A stretch of 64,000 nucleotides of DNA from Kineosporiaceae bacterium (GCA_016713225.1 JADJPO010000002.1:107844-171843), one strand, 5' to 3'. Shown: positions 22,217 through 44,939, counted from the first letter of the stretch. Notes: a model not told the origin generated them from the sequence alone. Made by a program: numbers and translations.

Positions 22217-22289
22217 GCGCCCGTAGCTCAACGGATAGAGCATTTGACTACGGATCAAAAGGTTAGGGGTTCGAATCCCTTCGGGCGCG
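22217..22289 (+). tRNA. tRNA-Arg (anticodon ACG)
   Basis: The hand-folded cloverleaf gives: acceptor GCGCCCG/CGGGCGC, D arm GCTC-AACGGATA-GAGC, anticodon stem TTTGA/TCAAA with loop CTACGGA, T arm AGGGG-TTCGAAT-CCCTT. CCA is not encoded. Confidence 0.9.
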
Positions 22290-22292
22290 CAG
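22248..22292 (+). repeat. att copy 1 (attL): 45-bp tRNA-Arg 3' half, identical at 41329-41373
   Basis: ctacggatcaaaaggttaggggttcgaatcccttcgggcgcgcag occurs at both positions. The integrase gene lies immediately downstream. Confidence 0.85.
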
Positions 22293-22334
22293 CGCATTTC
22301 CTCAGTAAACAGCCTCTGACCAGCGGTGACGTGG

Positions 22335-23798
22335 TCAGGGGCTGTTCTCGTCCTGTCCGGTCGTGGTCGGGTCGGAGTGGTCTTCGGTGTCCTTCCGCCC
22401 CACCGGCGCCCCACCGTTTGGTGTCGTTGCCTCGCCGATGGTGGCCTGGATCCGGGTGAGGTGGGCGTCGACGCCGCCGTCGATGCACTTGGCGTAGACG
22501 CGCAACAGGACCTCGACGCTGTGTCCGGCCCATTCGGCGACTTGGGGCGCGGGGACGCCGGCGCTGAGCCAGGTGGAGACGGCGGCGTGGCGCAGGTCGT
22601 AGGGGCGGGCGGCGAGGGGGGAAGCGGCCTGGGCGGCGGTGAGTGCCCGATCTCGGGCACGTCGCCAGATGGTGCGGTAGGTGAGGCTGGACAGGGCCTC
22701 GCCGCGCTCGCCGCGGAAGATCGGGTCGGTCTCGCCGCAGGGCCAGGTGGCGAGGTGGTGGCGCAGCAGGGCGACGAGGGCCGGCGGTGCGGGGGTGCGG
22801 CGGGACTCGCCACGGCTGCGGTGCTTGAGCTGGCGGGTGCTGCGCCGGGTGTTGTCGTCGGTCCACTGGCGTTCGATCTCGGGGGCGGCGCGGCAGGCGG
22901 TGATCCATCCCCAGCCGTCGCCGTCGGGCAGGTCGAGGTCGAAGGGTCGAAGGGCGACGGCCTCCTCCGGGCGCAGCGCGGCGTAGTACAGGCAGCCGAA
23001 GAACGCGACCAGATGTGGTCCGCTGCGCGGGGTGTTCCGGACCGCGTCGAGCAGGGCGCGGACCTGGTCGGGGTTGGCCACGGCGCGGCGGTCGACGGTG
23101 CCTGCTGTGCGCGGGGTCTTCCAGCTGAGCGTGGTGAGCGGGTTGTGGTCGAGGACCCCGAGCTCGACGGCGTAGGAGAAGGCATTGGAGAGGATCCGGC
23201 GTTTGAGTGTCGTGGACCGTCCCGCGGCGCGCTGGCCGTCCAGCCGGGTGGAGATCCGCTCGACGACCAAGCGCAGGACGTCGGGTTGCTGGAGGTCGCC
23301 CAGTGGACGGGCGTGCCGCTGAAGGCTGTCCAGGAGGGCCGTGACGTCTTCAGGCTGTTCGGGGGTGCCGCGTCGTCTGGTGTTGAACGCCCAGTTGTAG
23401 AGCGCGGAGCGCGCCGCCTGGGCCTCGTCCGTGGAGACCTCGATGGTGAGCAGCACCGGGGTGATCGAGGCGAGCGCCTCGGCGATGGACTTGCGGTGGT
23501 TCGGCGATGCGTCGGGCCACTTCATGTCGATGTACCGGCAGGCGAAGTCGTACCAGGTGAGTCTCGAGACCGAGCCGCGGATGGTGCTCACCGGGCGACC
23601 GCTCTCGATATCGAAGGCCTCGCCCTTGCGTTGGGCCGCGACGAGTTCGGACCGGAAGCTGTCGGCAGCTGCGGCCGTCCGGAAGACCGACTTCCATCGG
23701 CGTCCGGCGACGAACCAGGTGACCCGATAGCTGGTGGCGCGCTTGCCGACGTACCTCTCGACCGACCAGACGCGGACGTCGAAGGTGGTCTGCCTCAA
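22335..23798 (-). CDS. Tyrosine-type site-specific integrase
   Basis: The TTG start at 23798 overlaps the excisionase stop (TTGA). The N-terminus FDVRVWSVERYVGKRATSYRVTWFVAGRRW is typical of actinobacterial island/phage integrases. The catalytic region has ALRPEE, YDLRHAAVS, AGHSVEVLLRVYAKC. The track ORF extends spuriously to 24593. Confidence 0.85.
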   Translation of the reverse strand: MRQTTFDVRVWSVERYVGKRATSYRVTWFVAGRRWKSVFRTAAAADSFRSELVAAQRKGEAFDIESGRPVSTIRGSVSRLTWYDFACRYIDMKWPDASPNHRKSIAEALASITPVLLTIEVSTDEAQAARSALYNWAFNTRRRGTPEQPEDVTALLDSLQRHARPLGDLQQPDVLRLVVERISTRLDGQRAAGRSTTLKRRILSNAFSYAVELGVLDHNPLTTLSWKTPRTAGTVDRRAVANPDQVRALLDAVRNTPRSGPHLVAFFGCLYYAALRPEEAVALRPFDLDLPDGDGWGWITACRAAPEIERQWTDDNTRRSTRQLKHRSRGESRRTPAPPALVALLRHHLATWPCGETDPIFRGERGEALSSLTYRTIWRRARDRALTAAQAASPLAARPYDLRHAAVSTWLSAGVPAPQVAEWAGHSVEVLLRVYAKCIDGGVDAHLTRIQATIGEATTPNGGAPVGRKDTEDHSDPTTTGQDENSP

Positions 23799-24004
23799 GC
23801 CGCTTCCTCGCGGCCGCGCAGCCACCGGTCGAGTTCGGAGCGCCGCACCCGGATCGCGCCGTTCGGCAGCTTGATGCACCGAGGAGCGCGGCCCTTGGCC
23901 CGCCAGTCGTAGAACGTCGATCGCGAGATCTGCAGCTCCGCGCAGACCTGGGGGAGCGTCAGGCTGGTGCGTGATTCGCCGGCGAGGCGGGTGAGCGTGC
24001 CCAT
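23795..24004 (-). CDS. Excisionase / MerR-like helix-turn-helix DNA-binding protein
   Basis: ATG 24004 is preceded by GGAGG. The 69-aa product LTLPQVCAELQISRSTFYDWRAKGRAPRCIKLPNGAIRVRRSELDRWL matches the Xis-type HTH_17 pattern. Confidence 0.8.
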   Translation of the reverse strand: MGTLTRLAGESRTSLTLPQVCAELQISRSTFYDWRAKGRAPRCIKLPNGAIRVRRSELDRWLRGREEAA

Positions 24005-24219
24005 GTGGCACCTCCAGGTGAGTTGATGCAGTCGGGCTGAGCCGAGATCGCTCGGTCGCAACAAAGTAGCACGGACCGTAGGGACGTACCAGGCGTTGCA
24101 GGTACGCGACTGTCGCTGAGTCGCGCCGCTTCAGGTGGTTGTGCCAGTGGGTTCGACCGCGCCCGGTCGACGTGGTGGGGCGGCCCCGCCGGGCCGCGCC
24201 CAGCGGGCGTGCAGCTCGC

Positions 24220-24235
24220 GTAGTGACGTCACTAC
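24220..24235. promoter_or_regulatory. Perfect 16-bp palindrome GTAGTGACGTCACTAC upstream of xis-int
   Basis: It is self-complementary by inspection and lies in the non-coding stretch 24005-24835. Confidence 0.45.
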
Positions 24236-24498
24236 CTCTAGCTCGCTCCCGCCTGAACCAGAGGGGGTCTCGTCGCCACAAGGGCGGGCGAAGGCGCCCC
24301 GGGCGCAGGGCCTGAGCGGCCCTCGGAAGGACTCCCGCCGTGGTCATCGCAGACTGGAAGGGCATGCCGTCCAGGGGCGCCGGGTCTGACGCCGACGGTG
24401 TCCAGAGGCTGTCGCAGGCGTCCGCCCGGTGCCCGTGGCCAGATCGGTGCCCTTGGCGACGGGGGGCCCGCGCCTGGCGTTCGCGGCATCGCCAGGAG

Positions 24499-24604
24499 GG
24501 TGATGACGGATGACGGATCAGAGCCTTTTCCACATTTTCCCGCGTACGTATACGCGTACGCGGGTAATAGCGGCTGACCCCCAAATCCGTCATCCGTCAT
24601 CACC
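24499..24604. promoter_or_regulatory. Perfect 20-bp inverted repeat built from doubled CCGTCATC units, flanking an AT-richer core
   Basis: The arms are ggtgatgacggatgacggat (24499-24518) and atccgtcatccgtcatcacc (24585-24604). The core contains ttttccacattttcc and cgcgtacgtatacgcgtacgcg. Confidence 0.6.
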
Positions 24605-24835
24605 CCGGCCCGCGGGTCGGCCACGGGTGTCACCCCTGAGGCGATCCCGTTCTCCCGGCCCGTCACCCGGATGCGGAGACAGGGGGTAACACGGGCGCTG
24701 ACCTGCACCGTCATCCGATCTGGGGCGGAAAGGCCGGTGGGGGTACTCACCTTCGTCAGCGGACCGTTACCCCACCGCGTGGCCTCGTCACCTATCCGTC
24801 ATCGGCCCGATGGGTGACGGGTCGACGAACGTCCG

Positions 24836-26338: not shown

Positions 26339-28012
26339 CCCGACTTGGCTCACGTTTGGTGATCTTGGTGTGTTGCGGGGCTGTGACCTGCGGCGACGTT
26401 GATTGATCATGGGTTTGGTGTGCACTAGCCGGGGGGTGTGGGTCGTAGGCTCGGTGGGTGTCTCCTTACGTTCGGACGGTGCGGACGTCTTCGGGTGCGC
26501 GGGCGGTGCAGATCGTGCACTCGTCGCGGCGGGGGTCGCGGGAGATCACTCATGTCGGGTCGGCGCACACCGATGCCGAGTGGGAGGTGTTGAAGGCCGC
26601 GGCGTGGCAGCAGGTGGCGGCCGGGCAGGGTGAGCTCGACCTCGGCCTGGAGGGTGGGTCGGGTGGGTCTGCTGGTCGGGGTGCTCCGTTGCCGATCACG
26701 GCCTCGCGGATGGGGTACCTGTGGGAGGCGTTGAGTCGTGCCTACCAGGTCCTGGGGTTCGATGCCGCGGCCGGTGGGGACGGGGTGTTCCGGGATCTGG
26801 TGCTGGCCCGGATCATCGAGCCGACCAGCAAGCTCGACGCGGCCCGGGTGTTGGAGGAGGCGGGTGTGCCGGCCGCGTCGTATGCGACGTTGAAGCGGCG
26901 ACTTCCGATGTATGCCAAGGCGTCCTGGCAGCAGAAGCTGTCCGCGGCATGCGCCGCCCATGCCGGGCTGGGTCCGGCCAGCCTGGTCCTGTTCGACGTG
27001 TCCACCCTGTATTTCGAGACCGATCAGGGAGACGGGTTCCGGGAGAGCGGATTCTCCAAGGAACGCCGCCTGGAACCACAGATCACGATCGGCCTGCTCA
27101 CCGACGCATCGGGATTCCCGTTGGCGGTCAACGCGTTCGAGGGCAACAAGGCGGAGAAGGCCACCATGCTCCCGGTCATCGAGGCCTTCATGCGCGCTCA
27201 CCAACTCAGAGACGTGACGGTGGTCGCCGACGCCGGGATGATCTCCGCGGCCAACCAGGAGGCGATCGAGGAAGCGGGCCTGTCGTTCATCCTCGCCGTG
27301 AAGATCCCCGAACTGCCCTACTGCGTGCGGACCTGGCAGGCCAAGAACCCCGGTGAGCCGTTCACCGACGGGCAGATCTTCACCCAACCCTGGCCCGCCG
27401 GCGCCAAGGACACCCGCCGCGACCAGGTCATCTACTACCAGTACCGCGCTGATCGTGGCCGGCGCACGCTACGCGGCATCGACGAACAGGTCGCCAAGGC
27501 CGAGAAGGCCGTCGCCGGCAAGACCGCCATCAAACGGAACCGGTTCGTCAAACTCACCGGCGCCGACAAGAGCGTCAACCGCGCCCTGGAAACCAAGGCC
27601 CGGTCCCTGGCCGGGATCAAGGGCTACGTCACCAACCTGGCCGCCTGCCCCGACGGCACCGCGATCACCGCCGACTTCGTGATCGGCGCCTACCACCGGC
27701 TCTACCTGATCGAGAAGGCCTTCCGCATGTCCAAGCACGACCTGGCAGCCCGACCGATCTACCACCACAAGAAGGAATCGATCGAAGCCCACCTGACCAT
27801 CGTGTTCGCCGCCCTGGCCATCTCCCACTGGATCGAGACCACCACCGACTGGTCGATCAAGAAGTTCGTGCGGACCCTGCGGCGCTACCGCACCATCACC
27901 ATCCAGGCCGGCGCCCACACCATCACCGCCGAAGACCCCCTACCGCACGAGATCCGCGACATCATCACCAAGATCAACTCAACCGGACGACACTAGCCTG
28001 AGCCAAGTCGGG
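26339..28012 (+). mobile_element. IS1634-family (IS4-related) insertion sequence, 1674 bp
   Basis: Terminal inverted repeats are cccgacttggctca (26339-26352) and tgagccaagtcggg (27999-28012). It has a single 512-aa transposase ORF and is flanked by a 134-bp direct duplication. Confidence 0.85.
26458..27996 (+). CDS. IS1634-family DDE transposase
   Basis: The N-terminus MSPYVRTVRTSSGARAVQIVHSSRRGSREITHVGSAH is the hallmark start of IS1634-type transposases as I recall them. It is 512 aa and intact. Confidence 0.85.
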   Translation: MSPYVRTVRTSSGARAVQIVHSSRRGSREITHVGSAHTDAEWEVLKAAAWQQVAAGQGELDLGLEGGSGGSAGRGAPLPITASRMGYLWEALSRAYQVLGFDAAAGGDGVFRDLVLARIIEPTSKLDAARVLEEAGVPAASYATLKRRLPMYAKASWQQKLSAACAAHAGLGPASLVLFDVSTLYFETDQGDGFRESGFSKERRLEPQITIGLLTDASGFPLAVNAFEGNKAEKATMLPVIEAFMRAHQLRDVTVVADAGMISAANQEAIEEAGLSFILAVKIPELPYCVRTWQAKNPGEPFTDGQIFTQPWPAGAKDTRRDQVIYYQYRADRGRRTLRGIDEQVAKAEKAVAGKTAIKRNRFVKLTGADKSVNRALETKARSLAGIKGYVTNLAACPDGTAITADFVIGAYHRLYLIEKAFRMSKHDLAARPIYHHKKESIEAHLTIVFAALAISHWIETTTDWSIKKFVRTLRRYRTITIQAGAHTITAEDPLPHEIRDIITKINSTGRH

Positions 28013-28146
28013 TCCAACGCCAGATCGGTATGGACACCCGCGCCATCCCCGCCGGCACGATCAGGGACTGGATCTGCCGGTCACTGCCTGACACCGGGCC
28101 GGCTGACACCGGCCGCGAGGGCGCCGGGCAGACGAGCTCGGCGGGA
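28013..28146 (+). repeat. 134-bp direct repeat, right copy
   Basis: It is identical to 26205-26338. Confidence 0.85.
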
Positions 28147-28571
28147 GGGCCGCTACGGTTCACCCCGCATGACTTTCGAAGGATCTTCATCACCGACGCC
28201 GTGCTGCACGGCATGCCACCCCACATCGCTCAACTCGTCGCCGGGCACCGGGACATCAACACCACCATGGGTTACAAGGCCGTCTATCCCGAGGAAGCGA
28301 TCAACGGCCACCACGCGTTCATCGCCCGTCGACGAGCCCTGCGACCCAGCGAGGAGTACCGCGCCCCGACTGATGCCGAGTGGCAGGAGTTCCTCGGCCA
28401 CTTCGAGCACCGCAAGGTCTCCCTGGGCACCTGCGGGCGCTCCTACGCCACCGCCTGCATCCACGAACACTCCTGCCTGCGCTGCCCGCTGCTGCGCCCC
28501 GATCCCGCTCAACGCCACCGCCTCGTCGACGTCCGAGACAACCTCATCGCCCGGATCGACGAGGCTCGCCG
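28147..28571 (+). pseudogene. Tyrosine recombinase gene, fragment 2 of 3 (catalytic C-terminal region)
   Basis: It carries RFTPHDFRRIFITDAVLHGMPPHIAQLVAGHRDINTTMGYKAVY (HxxR, GH and catalytic Y blocks) followed by the Cys-rich extension CIHEHSCLRCPLLRPDP. The reading frame breaks at the IS256/IS21 insertion point. Confidence 0.8.
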
Positions 28572-28576
28572 TGTCG

Positions 28577-29994
28577 GGTCTGTAGGGCCAACGGTGTAAC
28601 CGGCCTGACGGGTAGACCAGCGTGTCTGCCAGGAAGGTCCAGTGATGGCCGACAAGATGCAGGGCATGAATGCTCTGGCTAAGAGAATCGAGATGTCTGA
28701 GCTCAAGCCTGGTGATGCTGAGCGGGCCGCGATCCGGGAGATGGTGAAATCTGCCAAGGATCGTGGTCTTGCTTTGACCGGGCCGGATGGCTTGTTGAAG
28801 ATCCTCACCAAGACGGTGCTGGAAACAGCGCTGGATGAGGAAATGACCGGTCACCTCGGTTATGAGAAGCACGCCGTGGAAGGCCGCGACGGCGGGAATT
28901 CCCGTAACGGGATCCGGTCGAAGACGGTGTTGACTGATTCGGTCGGGCCGATCGAGATCGATGTCCCGCGGGACCGGGATGGAAGTTTCGATCCGGTCAT
29001 TGTGAAGAAACGTCAGCGCCGGATGGGTGATGTCGATGCGATCGTCTTGTCGCTGTATGCGCGCGGGTTGACCACCGGTGAGATCAGCGCACATTTCGCG
29101 GAGGTCTACGGCGCGAGTGTGTCGAAGAATGTGGTCTCGGCGATCACCGATCAGGTGATCGAGGAAATGACGGAATGGTCGACCCGGCCGTTGGCCTCGC
29201 ACTACGTGGCCGTGTTCGTCGACGCGGTGCATGTGAAGGTCCGGGACGGGCAGGTCGCCAACCGGCCCTTCTACGCGGCCATCGGCGTGGACCTGCAGGG
29301 CCGCAGGGACGTGCTGGGCCTGTGGGCCGGCACCGCCGGGATGGGTGAGTCGTCCAAGTATTGGATCTCTATCTTAACCGAGTTGAAGAATCGTGGGGTG
29401 ATCGACATCTTCTACCTGGTCTGTGACGGCTTGAAAGGCATGCCCGATTCAGTGAACACGATCTATCCCGACACGATCGTGCAGACCTGTGTCGTGCATC
29501 TGATCCGGAACACGTTCCGGTATTCCTCGAAGAGGTATTGGGGTGAGCTCGCCCGGGACGTGAAAGCGATCTATACGGCGGTGGACGCCACGGCGGCGTG
29601 GGCGGCGTTCGAATCGTTGGAGGAGAAATGGGGGAAGCAGTATCCCGCGATCAGTAACCTGTGGCGGAATGCCTGGGAGAACTTCATCCCATTCTTGGAC
29701 TACGACATCGAGATCCGCAGACTGCTCTGCTCGACGAACGCGATTGAATCGATGAATGCCCGGTATCGGCGGTCCGTGGACGCGAAAGGTCATTTCCCCA
29801 CCGAGCAGGCAGCCATGAAAACCCTGTACTTGACCACCCGTAGCCTCGACCCGAAAGGAACCGGACAGAAACGATGGATCACCCGCTGGAAACCCGTCCT
29901 GAACGTCCTGGCGGTCGTTTTCGCCGACCGCATGCCCACCCCTGCTAGCCTCTAAAACACCAACCGCCGGTTACACCGTTGCGCCCACAGTCTC
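28577..29994 (+). mobile_element. IS256-family insertion sequence (~1.4 kb)
   Basis: Imperfect terminal repeats GGTCTGTAGGGCCAACGGTGTAACCGG and (reverse complement) GAGACTGTGGGCGCAACGGTGTAACCGG bound it. It is flanked by direct repeats of up to 12 bp (CTCGCCGTGTCG at 28565-28576 and 29992-30003). Exact ends are good to plus or minus 3 nt. Confidence 0.8.
28642..29955 (+). CDS. IS256-family (Mutator-type) transposase
   Basis: 437 aa. LTGPDGLLKILTKTVLETALDEEMTGHLGYEKH...NSRNG...DRDGSF and the later blocks DGLKG and CVVHLIRN are typical of IS256 transposases. Confidence 0.9.
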   Translation: MMADKMQGMNALAKRIEMSELKPGDAERAAIREMVKSAKDRGLALTGPDGLLKILTKTVLETALDEEMTGHLGYEKHAVEGRDGGNSRNGIRSKTVLTDSVGPIEIDVPRDRDGSFDPVIVKKRQRRMGDVDAIVLSLYARGLTTGEISAHFAEVYGASVSKNVVSAITDQVIEEMTEWSTRPLASHYVAVFVDAVHVKVRDGQVANRPFYAAIGVDLQGRRDVLGLWAGTAGMGESSKYWISILTELKNRGVIDIFYLVCDGLKGMPDSVNTIYPDTIVQTCVVHLIRNTFRYSSKRYWGELARDVKAIYTAVDATAAWAAFESLEEKWGKQYPAISNLWRNAWENFIPFLDYDIEIRRLLCSTNAIESMNARYRRSVDAKGHFPTEQAAMKTLYLTTRSLDPKGTGQKRWITRWKPVLNVLAVVFADRMPTPASL

Positions 29995-30066
29995 GCCGTG
30001 TCGCTTGCCAGCGTGATGGGACCACCCGTTCTGCCACGAGGATGGGACCACTGTGGGGCGGCTTGA

Positions 30067-34329: not shown

Positions 34330-35278
34330 TCAACAGGAGGACCTGGGGGCATCACCCGTTGACAGCCTGGTGCGACAACACCGGCGAGAACCTCGCACTG
34401 AAGCTGCGCACCGGGTCGGCGGGCAGCAACACCGTCACCGACCACCTCGAGGTCCTCACCGCCGCGATCGCCCAGATCCCTGCGAGCTTCCGCCGAGACC
34501 TGCTGATCACCTGCGACGGCGCCGGTGCCACCAAGGACCTCCTGACGCACATCACCACGCTGAACGCTGCGCCCGGGCGGCGGGTGCGCTACTCGGTCGG
34601 GTTCGACCTCGACCACCGGTGCCGGAGCGCGATCGACAAGGTCCCGGAAGCGTGTGGGAGAACGTCATCAACGCCGACGGTAGCGCACGTGACCCGGAGT
34701 ACGCCGGCGTCGTCGAGCTGACCGGCCTGCTGCGGGAATCCGCCGGCCCCGACGGCAAGGTCGTCGACCAGCTGAAGACCTGGCCGAAGGCCATGCGTGT
34801 CATCGTCCGCCGCGAACGCCCGCACCCCGGCGCGCAGCTGTCCCTGTTCGAGGAGGCCGACGGCTGGCGCTACCAGGTCTTCGCCACCAACACCCCCACC
34901 CGCATCGGCGGCAAGCTCGGGCAACTGGCCTACCTGGAGGCCCGCCACCGCGCCCACGCCCGAGTCGAGGACAGCATCCGCAACGCGAAGAGCACCGGGC
35001 TCGGCCATCTGCCCAGCAAGCACTACTCGCTCAATCAGGCCTGGTGCATCGCCGCCGCGATCGCCGTGGACCTGCTGGCCTGGCTACGGCTGCTGTGCCT
35101 GTCCGGCGACCTGGCCAAAGCCGAACCCAAGACGCTGCGCTACCGGCTGCTGCACACCGCCGCCCGCATCATCCGCGGCCAACGCCGACGCAGAATCCGC
35201 ATCCCCCAGACCTGGCCCTGGGCCCGCGAACTGGCCAGCGCGCTCACCACGGCGCTCACGCTGCCGATGACGACCTGA
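34330..35278 (+). pseudogene. IS1380-family transposase, 5'-truncated and frameshifted
   Basis: It reads GHHPLTAWCDNTGENLALKLRTGSAGSNT...RYSVGFD, then after a frame switch near 34640-34650 reads IVRRERPHPGAQLSLFEEADGWRYQVFATNT...RHRAHARVEDSIRNAKSTGL...AEPKTLRYRLLHTAARI. The N-terminal ~150 aa are missing. Confidence 0.75.
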
Positions 35279-35448
35279 ACCAGCGGCGCCCTGTCCGATT
35301 CGACCGAGGAACCCGCCCGGCCCGTGGAACCGGCGACCACCGACACGACAGCCGGGCCACCGCCACAACCTGAACCGCGATACAGGAGGTGAAGATCCAC
35401 ACAACTCGCTCCTGAAGGCCGGCTCACCTCACCCGCGAATGATCAAGG

Positions 35449-37395
35449 CTAGAGATCGTTGTCCGCCTGGCCCTTCACAAGCCACGTCTCCAGCGAAATA
35501 AGGAATTCATGATCGTCTGGCCCGATGCTTCGCCCATGCGCAAGATCATTGCGTAGAGAGTTCAGTCTCTGAAGCCAAGAGGGACGCGCCTTCCAACCCC
35601 CAGGCTTCTTTTCATCACCGGGTCGCGTGTATTGCTTCTCGAACTGTCGGCCCCAGAGTCCACTGTCCTGCGTGAGAATCGCGTGGTAGTCAACGATGTA
35701 CAGGCAATCCCACGGTTCGACCTGCTCGTCGACGGACGCGGCATCCGCATTCTTCTCGGCAGCGAGCGTTCCGGCGCTCTTCTTGACACCCTTCGGAACT
35801 CCAGACTGGAACCAGTTCGATCCGAACTCGTTCTCCAGGCGCCTACGAACGTCGTTCTTGAGGAATAGCTCGATAAGCCTGACGCGTTCCTGAGAGTCGG
35901 CATCGTCCTGGCGGGCCTGCCCCGCAAGGTATTCCTCAAGGCCGGGAGGGTCAAATTCGGGAATCTGTGAGCGAACAGCTTCCTGGAGCCGACGCCAGTA
36001 CTTCGTAGCACCGCCGGACCCATACTGGCTTCTATAACCTGCAGCTTCATCGCCGGATACGCCAGAGAGATGCCTAACGAGCGCATCCAGATATGGCAAG
36101 CATGCGTGAAAGAGTTCATCCGCATCCTCGCTGTCATGAGCAATCTGACCGCGATTCAGAAGGTGATCAACAATATCACTGAACATTCGAAGGAGCGACT
36201 CAATACCGTTGTTAATGAATACGAACCCACCCTCCGCAGCACCCAATGACCATTGGGTGGAGAGGCCTCCCCGAATGTGCCCGAAACACAGAGTAAGGAA
36301 TTCGCTGAGTAGGTCGTAGGTGGCGTCATTGCTTCCCCGCACTAGGTTCCCGCGGTCTCGGACTTCCGTGCGCGTGTAGGAGCCCAGCAAAGTGCCGCGG
36401 TCGAGGCCGCGACTGATGGCGTCAATCGTGACGCACCGCGTCAACGTCCTCTTGTCTTCGCCGATGATGACCCTGCCGAAGAGGGGAGAGCCCCTGCTCT
36501 CGCCAAGTTGCTGTGCCACACGTAGCTTGAGCGCCCTCGCTTGCTCACGTAGGTCCGTGGAACTCCACAGCAAGTCTGCGTTAAGCGTGTTGCGAAGGTT
36601 CTTTGGAACCGCCTGCTGATTCTCGTTGATCTCCATGAAGATTCGCACCTGCTCCGAGCGGGGGAGATCAACGAACGCAACCACAGGAATTAGATCCGTC
36701 TCAGAGCGTGGCGAGTCGGCGTATCCGTATAGACGATGCTGCCCATCGATGATGTACGCGGCGCGATAGGTCTGAGGCAAATGAAGAATCCCCATTCGCG
36801 GGGAACCTTCTCCCTTGCTAACGGGGTCGAACCTAAGCGGCCGGCGTCCTGGGTCCACGCTGATGATGAGAGAATTGGGAAAGAACCCCCCGGCTTCAAT
36901 GAACTGAGAGACTTGCTTCAGGCGCGTCTTCTTGATCAGTCGCTGATAGGTCGGCATCAAGCTGCTGTTGGCCTTGTTTCTGTGCAAGATGTATCCGAGC
37001 TTGAGGAGTCGATCCGGCTCGATAACGAACGAGTAGTACTTGTGTCCGCCCATGTTGCACTGTATGGCAGCTACCCTTGGTTCGAGGCCCGGAATTTTCA
37101 TACCCGCAAACAGACTTCCGAGCAACTGGTAGCGAGCGGCCCTTCCGAGGTGTTCGGCAAGGTCGAGGTAGTAGTCGATAACGTCCTCGTCCATGTGAAC
37201 GACGTCTGATTCTATGAACTTGTCAGCGGTCGATCGGGAGATGATGCAATTGCTAGAGGCGACTACGAACTTCACCTTACGCTCAGGGAAACTTCTACGC
37301 AGGGAGGCCATGACCTGAGAGCGAGTCTCCTGAATGGCTGCTAGTTCATCGCGGAAGGTGTAAGCGCGCAAAGTATCCATCGAAACGCAATCCAC
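35449..37395 (-). CDS. Large multidomain protein: DGQHR (DndB/ParB-fold) domain + C-terminal Swt1-type HEPN domain; the N-terminus probably continues into ORF 37341..37754
   Basis: It carries YQRLIKKTRLKQVSQFIEAGGFFPNSLIIS and AAYIIDGQHRLYGY (DGQHR signature), then NENQQAVPKNLRNTL. The C-terminus has SNWFQSGVPKGV, PWDCLYIVDYHAIL and LNSLRNDLAHGR (Rx4H). Its codon usage is visibly AT-richer than in neighbouring genes. Confidence 0.8.
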   Translation of the reverse strand: MDCVSMDTLRAYTFRDELAAIQETRSQVMASLRRSFPERKVKFVVASSNCIISRSTADKFIESDVVHMDEDVIDYYLDLAEHLGRAARYQLLGSLFAGMKIPGLEPRVAAIQCNMGGHKYYSFVIEPDRLLKLGYILHRNKANSSLMPTYQRLIKKTRLKQVSQFIEAGGFFPNSLIISVDPGRRPLRFDPVSKGEGSPRMGILHLPQTYRAAYIIDGQHRLYGYADSPRSETDLIPVVAFVDLPRSEQVRIFMEINENQQAVPKNLRNTLNADLLWSSTDLREQARALKLRVAQQLGESRGSPLFGRVIIGEDKRTLTRCVTIDAISRGLDRGTLLGSYTRTEVRDRGNLVRGSNDATYDLLSEFLTLCFGHIRGGLSTQWSLGAAEGGFVFINNGIESLLRMFSDIVDHLLNRGQIAHDSEDADELFHACLPYLDALVRHLSGVSGDEAAGYRSQYGSGGATKYWRRLQEAVRSQIPEFDPPGLEEYLAGQARQDDADSQERVRLIELFLKNDVRRRLENEFGSNWFQSGVPKGVKKSAGTLAAEKNADAASVDEQVEPWDCLYIVDYHAILTQDSGLWGRQFEKQYTRPGDEKKPGGWKARPSWLQRLNSLRNDLAHGRSIGPDDHEFLISLETWLVKGQADNDL

Positions 37396-37754
37396 AACAA
37401 GAACAACCTCATCGTCAGCAGCGATAAGGAAACATTCCTGTCGCTCGACGCTCCACCGGCGAGCGGAATGGAAATCGACGACCCTCTGCTAATCGTTGGG
37501 AAGTACAGCCGTGCCAGCGCCGCCCAAGTACGGTCCAAGAACGCGGCGTCGTGAGCCTTTGGCACGCGCATTCTCACGGATGACTTTAGGCGACGGTCTA
37601 CAACCCATCCCTCGTCTTCAAGCGCAGGCACCATCGAGGGCCGCACCGTCCGGAAAAGGGAAGGGTTCAGTCGCTTCCTGGTCTCGGGCCGGACCCCTCG
37701 AGGCGGCACCCACGAATCGGAGGTGAATGCGTCGGGAACGCGGGCTGTGCTCAT
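37341..37754 (-). CDS. Probable N-terminal segment of the DGQHR/HEPN protein, separated from it by a 1-nt frame change near 37480-37500
   Basis: Its ATG overlaps the methyltransferase stop (ATGA at 37751-37754). The first ~85 aa look protein-like (EDEGWVVDRRLKSSVRMRVPKAHDAAFLDRTWAALARLYFP) and the remainder looks like out-of-frame sequence. The downstream frame is open from 37482 and reads VVDFHSARRWSVERQECFLIAADDEVVLVVDCVS. Confidence 0.5.
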   Translation of the reverse strand: MSTARVPDAFTSDSWVPPRGVRPETRKRLNPSLFRTVRPSMVPALEDEGWVVDRRLKSSVRMRVPKAHDAAFLDRTWAALARLYFPTISRGSSISIPLAGGASSDRNVSLSLLTMRLFLLWIAFRWILCALTPSAMN

Positions 37755-38593
37755 CGGCAGTCCGGTAGGTTAGTGAAGATGTACTCGGATGCGTTTCCTC
37801 GGACCGAGCCGGTTCCACCAACATTGTTGCGCCGCGTCAGCTCGATGCGTGTGTCTCCCTTGTCGAAGAGCTGCGCGATAGAGGAGTGGGCGGCGTTGGT
37901 GAGAATGTAGAACGCACCCCGCTCCTTGATTGCATCCACCAGGTCGCTGAGGCGATGCTGATCTTCAAAGGAAAAGAGCTTCTGATTGTACTTTACGAAG
38001 CCATTATTGTTGTGGGCAACCGTGTATGGAGGATCCAAGAAGACAAGGTCTCCATCCGTAACGTTGTCGATGCATTCCGCGAAGTCTGCAACGCGTAGTT
38101 CTGTTCCCTGGAGTGGCGCGGAGACCGCGCGGAGCCATTTACGATTCGGGATGTGTTCCTTCTCGCGACTACCATAGGGGACGTTGTATATCCCTTTGAG
38201 GTTGACTCGATAAATTCCATTAAAGGACGTAGCGTTCAGGAAAATGAATCGGGCCGCTCGACCCTTCGCTGTGCGCGGCTTGGAGTCGCGGAGATGGTAG
38301 TAATACTCGGGAGTGTTTCGATGCGTGCGCAAAATGTCGGCAACACCCTCTGGATCGTCGCGAATCTGCTGGTAGGTCTCGACAAGTTCCGCGTTGAGGT
38401 CCGCAAGGTATGACTTTCCTGAGGGGAGTATTCCGAGAAACACCGAGGCGCCACCAAGAAACGGCTCGTGGTAATTCTTAAATGAAGTCGAGTTCAACAT
38501 TTGTCGCAACGTGGGGACAAGCCAGCGCTTCCCGCCCGCCCATCGCAGTACCGGCTGCGCTCCTGAGCCGAGGGGAACACCGTTGCCGGTCAT
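37751..38593 (-). CDS. D12-class (Dam-family) N6-adenine DNA methyltransferase
   Basis: 280 aa with LRWAGGKRWL, EPFLGGASVF (AdoMet motif I) and LVFLDPPY (motif IV). The order is that of the alpha group. Confidence 0.9.
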   Translation of the reverse strand: MTGNGVPLGSGAQPVLRWAGGKRWLVPTLRQMLNSTSFKNYHEPFLGGASVFLGILPSGKSYLADLNAELVETYQQIRDDPEGVADILRTHRNTPEYYYHLRDSKPRTAKGRAARFIFLNATSFNGIYRVNLKGIYNVPYGSREKEHIPNRKWLRAVSAPLQGTELRVADFAECIDNVTDGDLVFLDPPYTVAHNNNGFVKYNQKLFSFEDQHRLSDLVDAIKERGAFYILTNAAHSSIAQLFDKGDTRIELTRRNNVGGTGSVRGNASEYIFTNLPDCR

Positions 38594-38745
38594 TCGGCGA
38601 TGCTAGCCGATCCCGTTGATCGAGTCAGGACGATGGAGACTGATGTCGCATGACCGTCAGCGGCGCGAAGCGCCATATCCTGCCGGTCGGCCAAACGCCA
38701 TCCGAGCTGCCAGCCTCGCTGGTCCGGCTCTGACGGATTGCCTGA

Positions 38746-39167
38746 AAGGACCGGCCGGCAGCCACTCCTGCAGCGCCACTCGTAGAGCCGCTCGGCCGAC
38801 GGTGGCTTCGTGTAGTTGCTGTCGCGGCTCACGCGTCGGCCATCTCGGCGGCGCTGCTGCACGCTGACGAGTCCGAAGCGGTCGTCACCGCGGCGTGGCT
38901 GCACGACATAGGTATGACCTCGGAAAGGACGCAGACTCGGACAAGGGTTGTGCCGCAGAGCGCTTGCGAGCTGACCCGACACCCATGCAGTGAATCGGTT
39001 CGGTTGAGTGGTCTATGCATTGGGTGCTCGGCCAACGCAGGTTTGCGAGCTCTGCGACTTTGAGCGGGTGTCGTGAGGGCGTAGGGGCTCGTGGCCCCGT
39101 CATGCTGACCGCGGCCGAGCGCCGCGAGGTCGCCGAGCCGCTTCGGCGGGGCCCGAAAGCAGGCTGA
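38746..39167 (+). pseudogene. Possible decayed HD-domain phosphohydrolase gene
   Basis: Frame 1 reads PLVEPLGRRWLRVVAVAAHASAISAALLHADESEAVVTAAWLHDIG, which resembles the start of small actinobacterial HD-domain proteins. No start codon is in frame and the sequence after HDIG needs frame changes. Confidence 0.3.
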
Positions 39168-39341
39168 GCTGTCACCGAAACACCCACCGCCGCCCAGGCG
39201 ACTGAGCGGGTTGCGATCCCGGTACTCCTCCCTCCCCAGCTCCGAGGCTATTCTCGGGCGCTTGCGGCGACGGTGAGGCCATGATGGTTACTCTCCGTAG
39301 CAGAGCTACGGATCAAGAGGCCGGTTCAGCCGGAGACCGAC

Positions 39342-39380
39342 TGTTGTTCATTGCTAACCCCTGTTCATGCATAATGAACG
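39342..39380 (+). promoter_or_regulatory. Putative AbiEi promoter/operator: GTTCAT x2 direct + ATGAAC inverted in an AT-rich patch
   Basis: The sequence is tgttGTTCATtgctaacccctGTTCATgcataATGAACg. The same arrangement and spacing recur at 43424-43462 before the paralogue. Confidence 0.5.
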
Positions 39381-40413
39381 AGTGCCTTTATTGAACGATG
39401 TGGATGTGGTGGATCGCGCGCTGGCTGGCCTGGCCGACGTGGGACTCCGAGCGGTCCGGCGAGGTGAGGGAGTGGTGGTCCACGCCGGGGATGGCGCGCA
39501 CCGCAGGTACCGGCTCGTGGTTCGTGATCGGATGACGGCGCCGGTGGCGGGGGCGATCGAGGCACCTGGTGAGGCGTCGGGTGCGGCGACGTTGGTGGTG
39601 GCACCGTTCGTTCCGGAGCCGGCGGCTGTGGTGTTGCGTGGGCGGGGTGTGGACTATGTGGATGCCGCCGGGAACGTGTCGTTGCGCTGGGGCGGCGTCT
39701 GGATCGACGTTCGTGGACGGCGCCGGGTCATGGCCGATGTCCCGGTGACCGCGCCGAGCGCGCGGCGTCCGTTCACGCGTTCGGGGGCGCAGGTGACCTT
39801 CTGTCTGTTGTCCTGGCCGCAGCTGTGCGCGACGAGTGTGCGCGAGATCGCCGCGGCCAGTGGGACGGCGGTGGGCACGGCACAGGCTGTACTGCAGGAC
39901 CTGATCACGGGTGGCTACCTGGTCGGGGCCGGCGCCGGGCGGCGCTTGGTGCGTGGCGGGGAATTGCTGACCCGGTGGGCGGAGGCCTATGCCCTGTCGC
40001 TCTACGCCTCGCTCGAGTTGGGCACGTACCACGCCGAGGACCCGCGCTGGTGGACCGATGCCGGCGAGGAGTTGCTCGACGCGGGGGTCGATCTGGGGGG
40101 TGAGGCGGCCGCGTCGCGGATGGATGCGCATCTGCGCCCCAGCGGGGCGATCCTCTACGCCGAGACAGTCCCGGCGGGCGTGCTGGCCGCCCATCGGTGC
40201 CGCCGCGTCCAGCGACCTGACGAGGCAAACGTGGTGGTGCGCAGGCGGTTCTGGACCGTCCCGCAGGAGTCGGATCCGACGGAACCGCAGGGGTTGGCGC
40301 CCTCGGTGTTGGTCTACGCCGATCTGCTGGTCTCGGGAGATCCCCGTCAGCGCGAACACGCTCTGCGAGTGAGGAGTGGTGATGCTCGACTGCGTCGGCT
40401 CGACGGAAGCTGA
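39367..40413 (+). CDS. AbiEi-like antitoxin/transcriptional regulator (type IV toxin-antitoxin, AbiEi_3-type), copy 1
   Basis: 348-aa ORF followed by an overlapping nucleotidyltransferase gene. It has a central wHTH-like segment (SVREIAAASGTAVGTAQAVLQDLITGGYLV). The family assignment is from memory of the AbiEi_3 architecture. The true start may be one of the in-frame GTG/TTG codons at 39382-39409. Confidence 0.65.
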   Translation: MHNERVPLLNDVDVVDRALAGLADVGLRAVRRGEGVVVHAGDGAHRRYRLVVRDRMTAPVAGAIEAPGEASGAATLVVAPFVPEPAAVVLRGRGVDYVDAAGNVSLRWGGVWIDVRGRRRVMADVPVTAPSARRPFTRSGAQVTFCLLSWPQLCATSVREIAAASGTAVGTAQAVLQDLITGGYLVGAGAGRRLVRGGELLTRWAEAYALSLYASLELGTYHAEDPRWWTDAGEELLDAGVDLGGEAAASRMDAHLRPSGAILYAETVPAGVLAAHRCRRVQRPDEANVVVRRRFWTVPQESDPTEPQGLAPSVLVYADLLVSGDPRQREHALRVRSGDARLRRLDGS

Positions 40414-41191
40414 CCTCCTGCTGGAGGCGCAGGCCCTCGGCCGACTCACCGCTGCCCTGGGCGCCCCAGCATCTGGCCTCATGGTCATCGGCGCCACGGC
40501 TCGAAACATCCTGTCCGTCGGCCTGTTCGGCCGCTTGCCCCGACGAGGTACCCGCGATGTCGACATCGCGGTCGCCGTCGCGTCGTGGTCCGCCTACGAG
40601 CGAGCCACGGCGACGTTGCGGCGCCGGGCTGGTGTGCACGCCTTCACCGTCGACGTCGACGGCGTGCACGTGCCGGTCGATGTCGTCCCCTACGGCGGTA
40701 TCGAAGCGGTCGACCGCACGGTCGACCTACCCGATGACCACAGGCTCAATGTCCTCGGACTCCGTGAGGCCTTCGCCACCGCCCAGACCGCGCGGCTGCC
40801 CGGCGACGTCCAGGTGAGGGTGCCCACCGTGCCCGGACTGACCCTGCTGAAGCTGGTCGCCTGGTCTGAGCGCCACCTGCTGCATCGACGCGATGCCGTG
40901 GACCTCGACGAGATCATCGGCTGGTACGCCCAGGGCCGCTTCCTCGACGCGTTGTACGCGGACGTCGCGCTGCTCGAGCTCTACGACTTCGACATCGAAC
41001 TGGCCGCCGCGCATCGCCTCGGATCCGACGTCAGCGCGCTCCTGTCGCCCGCTGCCCACGTCGCGATCGAGGCCCTCCTCGGTCAAGATCGCCGCGCTCG
41101 ACTCGCCGGCGACATGCTGCGATCGGCCACCCGGCATCCTCACCGCCTCGACGCACTCGCCAACGGTTTCGGTGCGGAGGTCGCCTCCTGA
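40382..41191 (+). CDS. Nucleotidyltransferase, AbiEii-like toxin candidate, copy 1 (intact)
   Basis: ATG 40382 lies 5 nt after GAGGAG and overlaps the upstream gene by 32 nt. It has the NTase motif GATARNIL...RGTRDVDIAV. Confidence 0.65.
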   Translation: MLDCVGSTEADLLLEAQALGRLTAALGAPASGLMVIGATARNILSVGLFGRLPRRGTRDVDIAVAVASWSAYERATATLRRRAGVHAFTVDVDGVHVPVDVVPYGGIEAVDRTVDLPDDHRLNVLGLREAFATAQTARLPGDVQVRVPTVPGLTLLKLVAWSERHLLHRRDAVDLDEIIGWYAQGRFLDALYADVALLELYDFDIELAAAHRLGSDVSALLSPAAHVAIEALLGQDRRARLAGDMLRSATRHPHRLDALANGFGAEVAS

Positions 41192-41328: not shown

Positions 41329-41373
41329 CTACGGATCAAAAGGTTAGGGGTTCGAATCCCTTCGGGCGCGCAG
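41329..41373 (+). repeat. att copy 2 (attR of island A / attL of island B)
   Basis: It is identical to the 45 bp at 22248-22292. A further ~115 bp (41374-41487) repeats the sequence downstream of attL, including the integrase 3' end (22293-22408). Confidence 0.85.
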
Positions 41374-41483
41374 TGCATTCCTCAGTAAACAGCCTCTGAC
41401 CAGTGGTGACGTGGTCAGGGGCTGTTCTGGTTGTGTCCGGTCGTGGTCGGGTCGGGAATGGTCTTCGGTGCCCTTCCGCCCCA

Positions 41484-43423: not shown

Positions 43424-43462
43424 GCGCGTTCATTCTTGACCCCTGTTCATGCATAATGAACG
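43424..43462 (+). promoter_or_regulatory. Second copy of the putative AbiEi operator
   Basis: The sequence is cgcGTTCATtcttgacccctGTTCATgcataATGAACg. Confidence 0.5.
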
Positions 43463-44495
43463 AGTGCCCCTATTGAACGATGTGGATGTGGTGGATCGCG
43501 CGCTGGCTGGCCTGGCCGACGTGGGACTCCGAGCGGTCCGGCGAGGTGAGGGGGTGGTGGTCCACGCCGGGGATGGCGCGCACCGCAGGTACCGGCTCGT
43601 GGTTCGTGATCGGATGACGGCGCCGGTGGCGGGGGCGATCGAGGCACCTGGTGAGGCGGCGGGTGCGGCGACGTTGGTGGTGGCACCGTTCGTTCCGGAG
43701 CCGGCGGCTGTGGTGTTGCGTGGGCGGGGTGTGGACTATGTGGATGCCGCCGGGAACGTGTCGTTGCGCTGGGGCGGCGTCTGGATCGACGTTCGTGGAC
43801 GGCGCCGGGTCGTGGCCGATGTCCCGGTGACCGCGCCGAGCGCGCGGCGTCCGTTCACGCGTTCGGGGGCGCAGGTGACCTTCTGTCTGTTGTCCTGGCC
43901 GCAGCTGTGCGCGACGAGTGTGCGCGAGATCGCCGCGGCCAGTGGGACGGCGGTGGGCACGGCACAGGCTGTACTGCAGGACCTGATCACGGGTGGCTAC
44001 CTGGTCGGGGCCGGCGCCGGGCGGCGCTTGGTGCGTGGCGGGGAATTGCTGACCCGGTGGGCGGAGGCCTATGCCCTGTCGCTCTACGCCTCGCTCGAGT
44101 TGGGCACGTACCACGTCGAGGACCCGCGCTGGTGGACCGATGCCGGCGAGGAGTTGCTCGACGCGGGGGTCGATCTGGGGGGTGAGGCGGCCGCGTCGCG
44201 GATGGATGCGCATCTGCGCCCCAGCGGGGCGATCCTCTACGCCGAGACAGTCCCGGCGGGCGTGCTGGCCGCCCATCGGTGCCGCCGCGTCCAGCGACCT
44301 GACGAGGCAAACGTGGTGGTGCGCAGGCGGTTCTGGACCGTCCCGCAGGAGTCGGATCGGACGGAACCGCAGGGGTTGGCGCCCTCGGTGTTGGTCTATG
44401 CCGATCTGCTGGTCTCGGGAGATCCCCGTCAGCGCGAACACGCTCTGCGAGTGAGGAGTGGTGATGCTCGACTGCGTCGGCTCGACGGAAGCTGA
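43449..44495 (+). CDS. AbiEi-like antitoxin/regulator, copy 2 (intact, near-identical to copy 1)
   Basis: The 348-aa product differs from copy 1 at only a handful of residues (for example S/A at 71, M/V at 122, A/V at 223, P/R at 304). Confidence 0.65.
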   Translation: MHNERVPLLNDVDVVDRALAGLADVGLRAVRRGEGVVVHAGDGAHRRYRLVVRDRMTAPVAGAIEAPGEAAGAATLVVAPFVPEPAAVVLRGRGVDYVDAAGNVSLRWGGVWIDVRGRRRVVADVPVTAPSARRPFTRSGAQVTFCLLSWPQLCATSVREIAAASGTAVGTAQAVLQDLITGGYLVGAGAGRRLVRGGELLTRWAEAYALSLYASLELGTYHVEDPRWWTDAGEELLDAGVDLGGEAAASRMDAHLRPSGAILYAETVPAGVLAAHRCRRVQRPDEANVVVRRRFWTVPQESDRTEPQGLAPSVLVYADLLVSGDPRQREHALRVRSGDARLRRLDGS

Positions 44496-44736
44496 CCTCC
44501 TGGCAGGCCCTCGGCCGACTCACCGCTGCCCTCGGCGCCCCAGCATCTGGCCTCATGGTCATCGGCGCCACAGCTCGAAACATCCTGTCCATCGGCCTGT
44601 TCGGCCGCTTGCCTCAACGAGGTACCCGCGATGTCGACATCGCGGTCGCCGTCGCGTCGTGGCCCGCCTACGACCACAGGCTCAATGTCCTCGGACTCCA
44701 CTCGCCAACGGTTTCGGTGCGGAGGTCGCCTCCTGA
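44464..44736 (+). pseudogene. AbiEii-like nucleotidyltransferase, copy 2, destroyed by internal deletions
   Basis: The start and end match copy 1 (MLDCVGSTEADLL ... ANGFGAEVAS). A small deletion after ADLL shifts the frame, and two blocks corresponding to about 40593-40740 and 40758-41160 are missing. Confidence 0.75.
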
Positions 44737-44852: not shown

Positions 44853-44893
44853 CGGATCAAGAGGTCAGGGGTTCGAATCCCTTCCGGCGCGCA
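44853..44893 (+). repeat. att copy 3 (distal end of the island array), 3 mismatches to the tRNA-Arg 3' half
   Basis: Compare cggatcaagaggtcaggggttcgaatcccttccggcgcgcag here with cggatcaaaaggttaggggttcgaatcccttcgggcgcgcag in the tRNA. Confidence 0.75.
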
Positions 44894-44939
44894 GCGTGAG
44901 TTCCCGATGAACAGCCCTTCCGAGAGCGGTGCGGCGTGG

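Follow-up and report, generated by a model that had tools for sequence, protein, structure and literature searches.

A DpnM-like methylase coupled to a three-domain DGQHR protein: a candidate modification-gated defence module in a Kineosporiaceae bacterium

Introduction

Among the closest described systems to the two-gene module discussed here are the DpnII/MboI-type cassettes of Type II restriction-modification. The module lies at positions 35449-38593 of a 64,000-nucleotide stretch of DNA from a Kineosporiaceae bacterium (GCA_016713225.1, JADJPO010000002.1:107844-171843), and this whole stretch is referred to as the window. It encodes a methylase that resembles DpnM (39% identity), the GATC N6-methyladenine (m6A) methylase of the DpnII system, and shares with the DpnII/MboI-type cassettes the order of methylase then effector and the overlap of stop and start codons, and at six related loci the effector lies inside real DpnII cassettes. 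Unlike these cassettes, the window is devoid of R.DpnII (PF04556), the partner of the methylase is an unrelated three-domain protein of 768 aa (the effector in the following), and GATC is here a predicted target.

SspE is a restriction effector in which a ParB-like NTPase is joined to a nuclease and which reads a DNA modification. GmrSD, also a ParB-like protein with a nuclease part, is a restriction effector as well (PMC4619093, PMC12839542). GmrSD and BrxU (DUF262-DUF1524) as well as SspE resemble the effector in their central domain of ParB/Srx fold with a DGQ(H/Q)R motif fused to nuclease domains, in the discrimination of modified from unmodified DNA that is proposed for the effector, and in their location in defence islands. 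By contrast, their motif is DGQQR (DUF262) combined with HNH (DUF1524), and they are stand-alone or linked to phosphorothioates (PT), whereas in the effector DGQHR (TIGR03187) is accompanied by PD-(D/E)xK and HEPN-like domains, and its genetic partner is an m6A methylase; neither DUF262 nor DUF1524 was matched by the module proteins in Pfam, NCBIfam or PADLOC.

The DGQHR domain is also shared with DndB and DpdB (PF14072, 1.4e-14, together with domain-level matches to DpdB and DndB models), and a DndB-like ParB-fold protein binds ATP and GTP (bioRxiv 10.1101/2025.10.10.680097). The effector differs from DndB and DpdB in being about twice the size and in carrying two extra nuclease-type domains, and its scores stay below the equivalog cutoffs for DndB (TIGR03233, 25.4 with a cutoff of 328), DpdB (NF041060, 60.2 with a cutoff of 300) and TIGR04172 (DGQHR_dnd_1, 80.5 with a cutoff of 450). 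An initial annotation, made from the sequence of the window, had claimed that no dnd or dpd genes are nearby. This was confirmed, as dndACDE, dpdA and dpdC are absent from the window and the neighbours are insertion sequence (IS) fragments, AbiE genes, an integrase and a CPBP gene; dnd genes did not show beside the pair in 81 genome loci either, loci which had not been selected by dnd genes.

Like PrrC and RloC, the effector has a HEPN-type RNase domain, putative here, that is coupled genetically to a restriction-modification module, with a possible second-line logic (PMC3710099), but PrrC forms a protein of its own (ABC-ATPase-HEPN) within a Type I system, whereas here the HEPN-like domain is fused to restriction endonuclease-like (REase-like) and ParB-like domains and accompanied by a Type II-style methylase. 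The same domain combination was noted in 2013 by Makarova et al. (PMC3632139) and Anantharaman et al. (PMC3710099), who described DGQHR/ParB domains (COG1479/DGQHR) fused to PD-(D/E)xK and HEPN domains and linked to restriction-modification, and a Swt1-type HEPN fusion “ParB (Saro_3948)” was listed in the latter paper (PMC3710099). In contrast to the present analysis, these are a table entry or a sentence only, with no two-gene system, no analysis of a methylase or radical S-adenosylmethionine (radical-SAM) partner and no experiment. The homologue of the effector on plasmid pNL1 of N. aromaticivorans is probably Saro_3948, judging from organism and architecture.

Current catalogues do not hold the effector. 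In PADLOC v2 the whole protein is not covered by any model, the matches being limited to domain-level DpdB/DndB ones and a marginal PDC-M34B match to the C-terminus; Pfam and NCBIfam have no such model either, and the NCBI name is “DGQHR domain-containing protein”. The two-gene methylase and nuclease system PD-Lambda-5 of PADLOC was not recovered, as the methylase gives a weak generic D12 match to PD-Lambda-5_B (48 bits) and the effector no match to PD-Lambda-5_A. The initial annotation had suggested a check against PADLOC, where the effector has no model, and had stated that the pair is not known to have been characterised experimentally. On this second point, no paper naming, defining or testing the pair was found in the searched literature, whose coverage is thin for subscription journals and does not include REBASE, with the caveat that computational work had drawn attention to the ParB-HEPN architecture, and to its association with restriction-modification, in 2013. 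What is novel here is an uncharacterised three-domain effector in restriction-modification logic, partly anticipated by comparative genomics.

The two-gene module

The module and its parts are located as follows (P0001 is the intact effector; numbers beginning with L denote loci used for comparison).

35449-38593, minus strand: two-gene module (3145 nt), methylase gene and then effector gene
37751-38593, minus strand: D12/Dam-family (DpnM-like) N6-adenine DNA methyltransferase (843 nt, 280 aa), from PF02086, TIGR00571 and PADLOC MTase_II
37428-37754, minus strand: effector 5' part, residues 1-109 of the intact protein, identical to the P0001 N-terminus up to ...DRNVS; in the window the frame continues as far as the stop codon at 37341
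37427-37431, minus strand: frameshift site, two C in place of CCC on the coding strand (GG for GGG on the plus strand), gap at about 37430, from alignment with L001-L006
35449-37428, minus strand: effector 3' part, residues 110-768 and stop codon, an open frame 100% identical to P0001 residues 110-768
37111-37559, minus strand: PD-(D/E)xK (Hjc/REase-like) domain, residues ~66-215, spanning the frameshift, from Pfam Hjc in homologues, Foldseek and residue conservation
36136-37071, minus strand: DGQHR (DndB/DpdB-type ParB-like) domain, residues ~229-540, from TIGR03187, with the DGQHR motif at 36733-36747
35452-35958, minus strand: all-helical C-terminal domain, residues ~600-768, putative Swt1-type HEPN, with RNDLAH (Rx4H) at 35536-35553

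The stop codon of the methylase gene overlaps the start codon of the effector gene in the sequence ATGA at 37751-37754, and the open reading frame (ORF) calls agree with the earlier description of two co-directional minus-strand genes that share these four nucleotides. The module had also been described as AT-richer than its surroundings, and its guanine-cytosine (GC) content is indeed 0.53-0.60 over about 35.5-38.5 kb versus 0.67-0.73 on either side.

The assignment of the first gene to the D12/Dam N6-adenine methyltransferases, already made in the initial annotation, was upheld by PF02086 (4.5e-43, 148 bits with a cutoff of 22), TIGR00571 (192.6 bits with a cutoff of 114.85) and PADLOC MTase_II (305 bits, 1e-91), and both the S-adenosylmethionine (SAM)-binding motif FLGGASVF and the catalytic motif DPPY are found in the translation. 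The best relative in the PDB is DpnM (2dpm) with 181.7 bits and 39% identity over 261 aa, while E. coli Dam reaches 98 bits. E. coli Dam methylates GATC, and equivalents of its residues N120, R124 and P134, which are DNA-contact residues, are conserved in the alignment of the methylase. As DpnM is the closest solved relative, these three equivalents are kept and related loci carry R.DpnII, GATC would most likely be the target of the methylase.

Domains and conserved residues of the effector

Of the three domain calls in the effector, that of a DGQHR/DndB-type ParB-like domain is strong, with TIGR03187 matched at 144.3 bits (cutoff 58.85; 6e-42) next to the PF14072 match (1.4e-14), and the central DGQHR signature had been recognised correctly in the initial annotation. 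A REase-like N-terminus, also part of that annotation, is supported by the predicted structure: in the AlphaFold model of the full-length effector (predicted local distance difference test, pLDDT, 87.5; predicted template modelling score, pTM, 0.70) the N-terminal core has the canonical topology alpha-beta-beta-beta-alpha-beta, and the top Foldseek matches of this model against the PDB are PD-(D/E)xK proteins, namely VC1899/Card1/Can2/Cdn1, EndoMS, AF1548, FokI, McrC and XisH. These matches have probabilities of 0.9-1.0 with E-values of only 6e-3 to 0.4, and neither ParB nor HEPN is among the top 50 matches of the full-length model. Pfam Hjc is matched by 15 of 30 effector homologues (best 3e-6). 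In the copy in the window D74, D114 and K160 are present and the ExK motif reads D122-C-V124.

The HEPN assignment of the C-terminal domain is plausible and the weakest of the three calls. RNDLAH (residues 735-740) places an Rx4-6H motif in a helical bundle, with helix 727-739 belonging to an all-helical domain, and HEPN_Swt1 (PF18731) is matched by 16 of 30 effector homologues at E <= 0.05 (best 2.2e-6).

Conservation was followed in 111 close homologues and in 77 species-level relatives at 33-98% identity. DGQHR, R735, H740, D74, W77, D114 and K160 are invariant in the 111 close homologues, where the ExK motif varies (E122 in 74, K124 in 69 and R124 in 25) and V, L, H or T stands at position 124 in 14 proteins that are otherwise well conserved. 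In the wider set, DGQHR, F373, N377 and E378 are found in 77/77 proteins, which makes the DGQHR core the sole universally invariant part of the protein, while E122 is kept in 61/77, K or R at position 124 in 69/77 and Rx4H (R735/H740) in 64/77. Motif loss is specific to clades: the Bacillota effectors L048-L057 and L076-L086 keep ECK and lose Rx4H, and in the Actinomycetota L008-L029 Rx4H is kept and E122 is in many cases replaced by a hydrophobic residue. When the REase and HEPN motifs were compared for reciprocal loss, both were missing in 2/77 relatives, with about 3 expected by chance; since the double loss is near chance there is no sign of redundancy between the two motifs.

Linkage to the methylase and to DpnII cassettes

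The gene neighbourhood was followed in 81 loci from species-representative genomes, about 75 of which are informative, with Actinomycetota, Bacteroidota, Bacillota, Pseudomonadota, Campylobacterota, Nitrospirota and others represented and at least six phyla, judged by record titles, among the 80 best loci. A D12 methylase is detectable by phmmer at 73 of the 81 loci, and about 64 of these methylases lie directly upstream of the effector in the same orientation, in most cases sharing 4 nt or 1 nt with it. Some of the phmmer exceptions carry a divergent D12 methylase that is found by Pfam (L019, L050, L073 and L080), the upstream ORF of L075 resembles that of L073, and four loci (L043, L051, L069 and L070) are truncated by a contig edge. 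The synteny check suggested in the initial annotation has hereby shown that homologues almost always adjoin a methyltransferase. Effectors from IMG/VR and metagenomes with 28-40% identity still have an adjacent methylase, located upstream at 16 loci and downstream at 13, and the pairwise identities of effectors and methylases correlate with r = 0.79 over 1770 pairs. The linkage of the effector to a partner of the modification type is near-universal and co-evolving.

A methylase gene and a nuclease-type gene that are adjacent with conserved linkage are the arrangement of a Type II restriction-modification system. For the predicted active site the fold and topology are supported, but the copy in the window is frameshifted and reads D114...D122-C-V124 without the lysine.

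At six loci the effector stands beside R.DpnII (PF04556, 1e-94 to 1e-97) in DpnII-type cassettes, which speaks for a role beyond that of an ordinary restriction enzyme. Five of these loci are from Bacteroidota (L059, L060, L065, L071 and L074) and contain, in this order, a D12 methylase, R.DpnII (PF04556, 1.7e-94), the effector, an N6_N4 methylase (DpnA-like) and a NOV_C protein; in the sixth, L175, the order is N6_N4 methylase, R.DpnII, effector. A different arrangement is seen in Microbacterium sp. CFH 31415 (L027, 774-8265), where the D12 methylase is followed by McrB-like (AAA_5) and McrC-like genes and then the effector.

An alternative partner of the effector

Full-length homologues of the effector on the N. 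aromaticivorans plasmid pNL1 (31% identity over 93% of the query) and on Agrobacterium/Rhizobium plasmids, with identities of 29-31%, are without a methylase and adjoin a small DGQHR protein, a radical-SAM protein and a GHKL ATPase. In a metagenome scan seeded with this plasmid branch, the radical-SAM/GHKL pair was found beside the effector in 40 of 80 loci and in every orientation, with the small DGQHR protein either present or absent, and a D12 methylase in 29 of 80. On a neighbour-joining tree of 143 effectors the type of partner switches at least four times. The trio (7308-11448 in L087, which is pNL1; 7368-11591 in L088; and 40 of the loci L097-L176) is made up of the small DGQHR protein of about 335 aa, the radical-SAM protein of about 540 aa and the GHKL (HATPase_c_3) ATPase. 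It has no name in PADLOC, in the Pfam families or among the NCBIfam equivalogs, and could be an undescribed DNA-modification or sensing module.

Because the partner is replaced in 40 of 80 relatives and on the plasmids, with at least four switches on the tree, the data are read as one effector combined with alternative, putatively marking modules, which fits a “mark and execute” logic. An extension of this reading, in which the effector would be a portable modification reader and executioner and would define a new class of defence, gated by modification and ending in both DNase and RNase attack, is put forward tentatively and is more probably wrong than right. It would be served by interchangeable self-marking modules, either a DpnM-type m6A methylase or radical-SAM and GHKL proteins with or without the small DGQHR protein, the latter making an undescribed DNA modification.

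Proposed mechanism and competing explanations

The preferred reading of the locus is a two-gene, modification-gated, restriction-modification-like defence module, a proposal that is given about an even chance and in which the defence function is something we infer. In this model the DpnM-like methylase would mark host DNA with m6A, most probably at GATC, while the 768-aa effector would act as the executioner, with its central DGQHR domain serving as a nucleoside triphosphate (NTP)-binding, DNA-engaging switch between the N-terminal PD-(D/E)xK DNase-like domain and the C-terminal HEPN-like RNase domain. DNA without the mark of the partner would be met by attack of the effector, either by DNA cleavage, by RNA cleavage through the HEPN domain that arrests the cell, or by both, so that methylation would be what protects the host. 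The ATGA overlap would couple the translation of the two genes and so ensure that synthesis of the effector does not precede that of the methylase. For HEPN domains fused to the nucleases of restriction-modification systems, a role in second-line defence has been predicted (PMC3710099).

Several observations weigh against this proposal. All activities ascribed to the effector and the methylase are predicted from sequence and models. The HEPN_Swt1 match of this copy is sub-threshold (15 bits versus a gathering score of 27.5, E 0.03-0.04), Foldseek with the isolated C-terminal model (pLDDT 87.5) against the PDB gave no HEPN match and a best E-value of 1.1, and profile searches of PDB sequences with the C-terminal domain gave no match; the HEPN call therefore rests on the Pfam matches and the motif. 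The earlier claim of an Rx4H motif in a Swt1-like HEPN context is borne out by the motif and by the homologues matching PF18731, and is more weakly supported in this copy. Canonical REase residues are not strictly kept in the family (E122 in 61/77, K/R124 in 69/77), this copy having D122 and V124, and a Bacillota clade is without Rx4H, lost in 13/77, but has ECK. At the six DpnII-type loci the effector co-exists with a conventional GATC endonuclease, R.DpnII, and hence is not simply “the” restriction enzyme there, while L100 and L121 are the only loci among about 145 informative ones with neither type of partner. The observed/expected ratio of GATC is about 1.0 in the window, with no depletion (from 4-mer palindrome ratios for the window, the module and the non-island part), a result which gives no information on specificity and is uninformative rather than contrary. 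Finally, the effector gene is split in the window into ORFs at 37341-37754 (137 aa) and 35449-37395 (648 aa) on the minus strand.

The split is caused by a deletion of one base at about 37430 and contradicts the initial annotation, which had described the second gene as one continuous giant protein. The long DGQHR-bearing frame opens at 37488, its first start codon lying at 37395, and a peptide string in that annotation, “ECFLIAADD...”, joins residues that are out of frame, the in-frame sequence being ...NVSLIAADDEVVLVVDCVS. Both pieces are 100% identical in a database search to P0001, an intact 768-aa effector annotated as “DGQHR domain-containing protein [Kineosporiaceae bacterium]”, which is encoded by six other assemblies of the same locus (L001-L006), namely one 141-kb contig of an NCBI metagenome-assembled genome (L001, GCA_016709945.1) and ENA and Logan contigs. 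Over the 3145-nt module the window differs from these six by one missing base and no mismatch. Further indels of 1-2 nt relative to L001 are found at window positions 44503, 45300, 45678 and 46535, with those at 45300 and 46535 in short homopolymers. As such homopolymer indels resemble the deletion in the effector, a long-read assembly error is one explanation of the frameshift; the deletion is either such an error or a real inactivating mutation. A module free of single-nucleotide polymorphisms (SNPs) was considered as a sign of recent transfer and rejected, because the SNPs that separate L001 from the window are concentrated in repeated AbiE/IS segments and other unique stretches are equally identical.

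The one-base deletion and the valine in place of the ExK lysine mean that the effector copy in the window may be inactive, leaving a functional orphan methylase, or else the deletion may be an assembly error. In the first case the locus would be a decaying remnant, in which the frameshift and the lost lysine have turned the effector into a pseudogene and the methylase alone functions as an orphan Dam-like enzyme, a reading that is less probable than the preferred one and still has a serious chance. Restriction-modification systems commonly lose the restriction gene and keep the methylase, and V124 in place of the consensus lysine, which the initial annotation had pointed out, is a real departure from the family consensus ECK. 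Effectors split into two ORFs are also found in L038, L124, L136, L145 and L158, and the methylase is split in L090, with pseudogene and assembly error alike possible in these loci. On the other hand, the six other assemblies are intact and otherwise identical over the 3145 nt, the indels at 45300 and 46535 are what is expected of long-read assembly error, and V, L, H or T at position 124 is found in 14 of 111 otherwise well-conserved homologues.

A second alternative keeps the defence function and reverses the role of the methylase. As in SspE, the mark of the partner on host DNA would license a sensor by switching on the DGQHR NTPase, followed by attack on unmarked invader DNA or RNA, so that the methylase, instead of being an antidote, would serve as activator or self-reference and the effector would do no harm on its own. 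The architecture parallels that of ParB-like NTPase and nuclease effectors that read a modification (SspE, as cited in PMC10853773), the link of the effector to a partner of the modification type is obligate whichever gene comes first, and no solo effector is known from the roughly 145 informative loci except L100 and L121. Nevertheless, the same synteny is predicted equally by an antidote logic, and the methylase-first order with overlapping stop and start, dominant in the closest 64 loci, is typical of toxin-like restriction genes. This explanation is rated unlikely.

Somewhat less likely still is an abortive-infection back-up of the PrrC kind, in which a latent HEPN RNase and/or DNase is freed when a phage blocks methylation or restriction, for instance by anti-restriction proteins or SAM depletion, and kills or arrests the cell rather than restricting DNA. 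Embedding of the effector in complete DpnII cassettes that own their REase would suit such a role, as would the invariance of Rx4H in the actinobacterial clade, where E122 of the REase-like domain is often lost, and the general proposal made for HEPN domains in restriction-modification loci (PMC3710099). Most loci, however, are without a nuclease other than the effector, the Bacillota clade keeps ECK and has lost Rx4H, so that an RNase is not the universal output, and the HEPN assignment is structurally weak.

In a non-defence reading, the DGQHR protein would be a regulator or accessory factor of the DndB kind, by which the methylase is controlled or targeted in epigenetic regulation. Precedents are DndB, described as a repressor of the dnd operon whose action is modulated by ATP, and DpdB, described as an ATPase that assists the modification of DNA (PMC10853773, PMC12839542), and the DGQHR core is the sole universally invariant part of the effector. 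This role is very improbable for a protein of about 770 aa that has two flanking nuclease-type domains with catalytic-type residues kept in most members, a mobile, defence-island-like context, a presence in DpnII cassettes and beside McrBC, and DndB and DpdB model scores that do not come near the equivalog cutoffs.

The integrative island

The surroundings of the module contain the following features.

22217-22290, plus strand: tRNA-Arg(ACG), integration site of the island, from ARAGORN and Rfam
22335-24593, minus strand: tyrosine integrase of the island (PF00589, 2.6e-9)
39367-41191: AbiEi/AbiEii pair, between the first two tRNA-Arg repeats
41332-41395, plus strand: direct repeat of the tRNA-Arg 3' half, distal att site of the ~19-kb island, from repeat search and DNA alignment
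44853-44916: third copy of the tRNA-Arg 3' half, from repeat search and DNA alignment

Between the first and the second tRNA-Arg repeat lie the integrase, IS transposases (DDE_Tnp_1, Mutator family and IS21 IstA/IstB), the module and the AbiEi/AbiEii pair, and beyond this pair a second AbiE copy and a CPBP/Rce1-like gene are found. The tRNA repeats, the integrase and this gene content bear out the claim of an integrative island with AbiE modules, a CPBP/Abi protease and IS debris. Low GC and defence-island surroundings with AbiE and IS elements are signs of mobility, and horizontal acquisition on a tRNA-Arg island is the best explanation for the presence of the module.

The 3' half of tRNA-Arg is present in three copies in the window, which indicates that at least two elements have integrated in tandem at the same tRNA, and the sequence just downstream of it (22298-22375) is repeated at 41378-41455 with 95% identity. 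The AbiEi/AbiEii module is likewise duplicated (39346-40599 and 43428-44673, ~98% identity, ~4.08 kb apart). SNPs between the window and L001 fall mostly in these AbiE duplicates, pointing to collapsed repeats or gene conversion in one of the assemblies. A second patch of lower GC (~0.60) at 28000-30000 coincides with a Mutator-family transposase gene at 28642-29955 (PF00872, 1e-123), and a 51-nt inverted repeat (76% complementary, 6-nt spacer) is located at 24498-24605, at the 5' end of the integrase gene. The Rfam scan of the window gave two tRNAs and nothing else, and a promoter scan of 35000-39500 gave no promoter-like site and terminator-like matches at background level.

Distribution and significance

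Relatives of the effector are present in more than 520 species-level genomes and amount to 472 representatives of 50%-identity clusters at E <= 1e-30, nearly all of the top 150 having about 750-790 aa. Only four full-length relatives were found in IMG/VR and none in GenBank phages, and on this near-absence a phage-borne system was rejected. The family is moderately large, widespread and coherent, its mechanism is a proposal, and the copy of the effector in this genome may be non-functional.

In Mycobacterium abscessus subsp. massiliense, certain clinical clades are distinguished by four genes, two of which encode a DGQHR-domain protein and a “DpnIIA” adenine methylase (PMC9248903). These two accessory genes are apparently the same module, and the pair could affect DNA uptake and genetic tractability in this organism. 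If the preferred reading is true, several hundred 50%-identity clusters would represent unrecognised defence of the restriction-modification type, and the effector, by joining a ParB-type nucleotide switch to two nuclease folds, would offer a model in which to study how the methylation state of DNA is translated into an attack on DNA or RNA. The alternation of the effector between a methylase and a radical-SAM/GHKL partner would also offer a route to a possibly new DNA modification.

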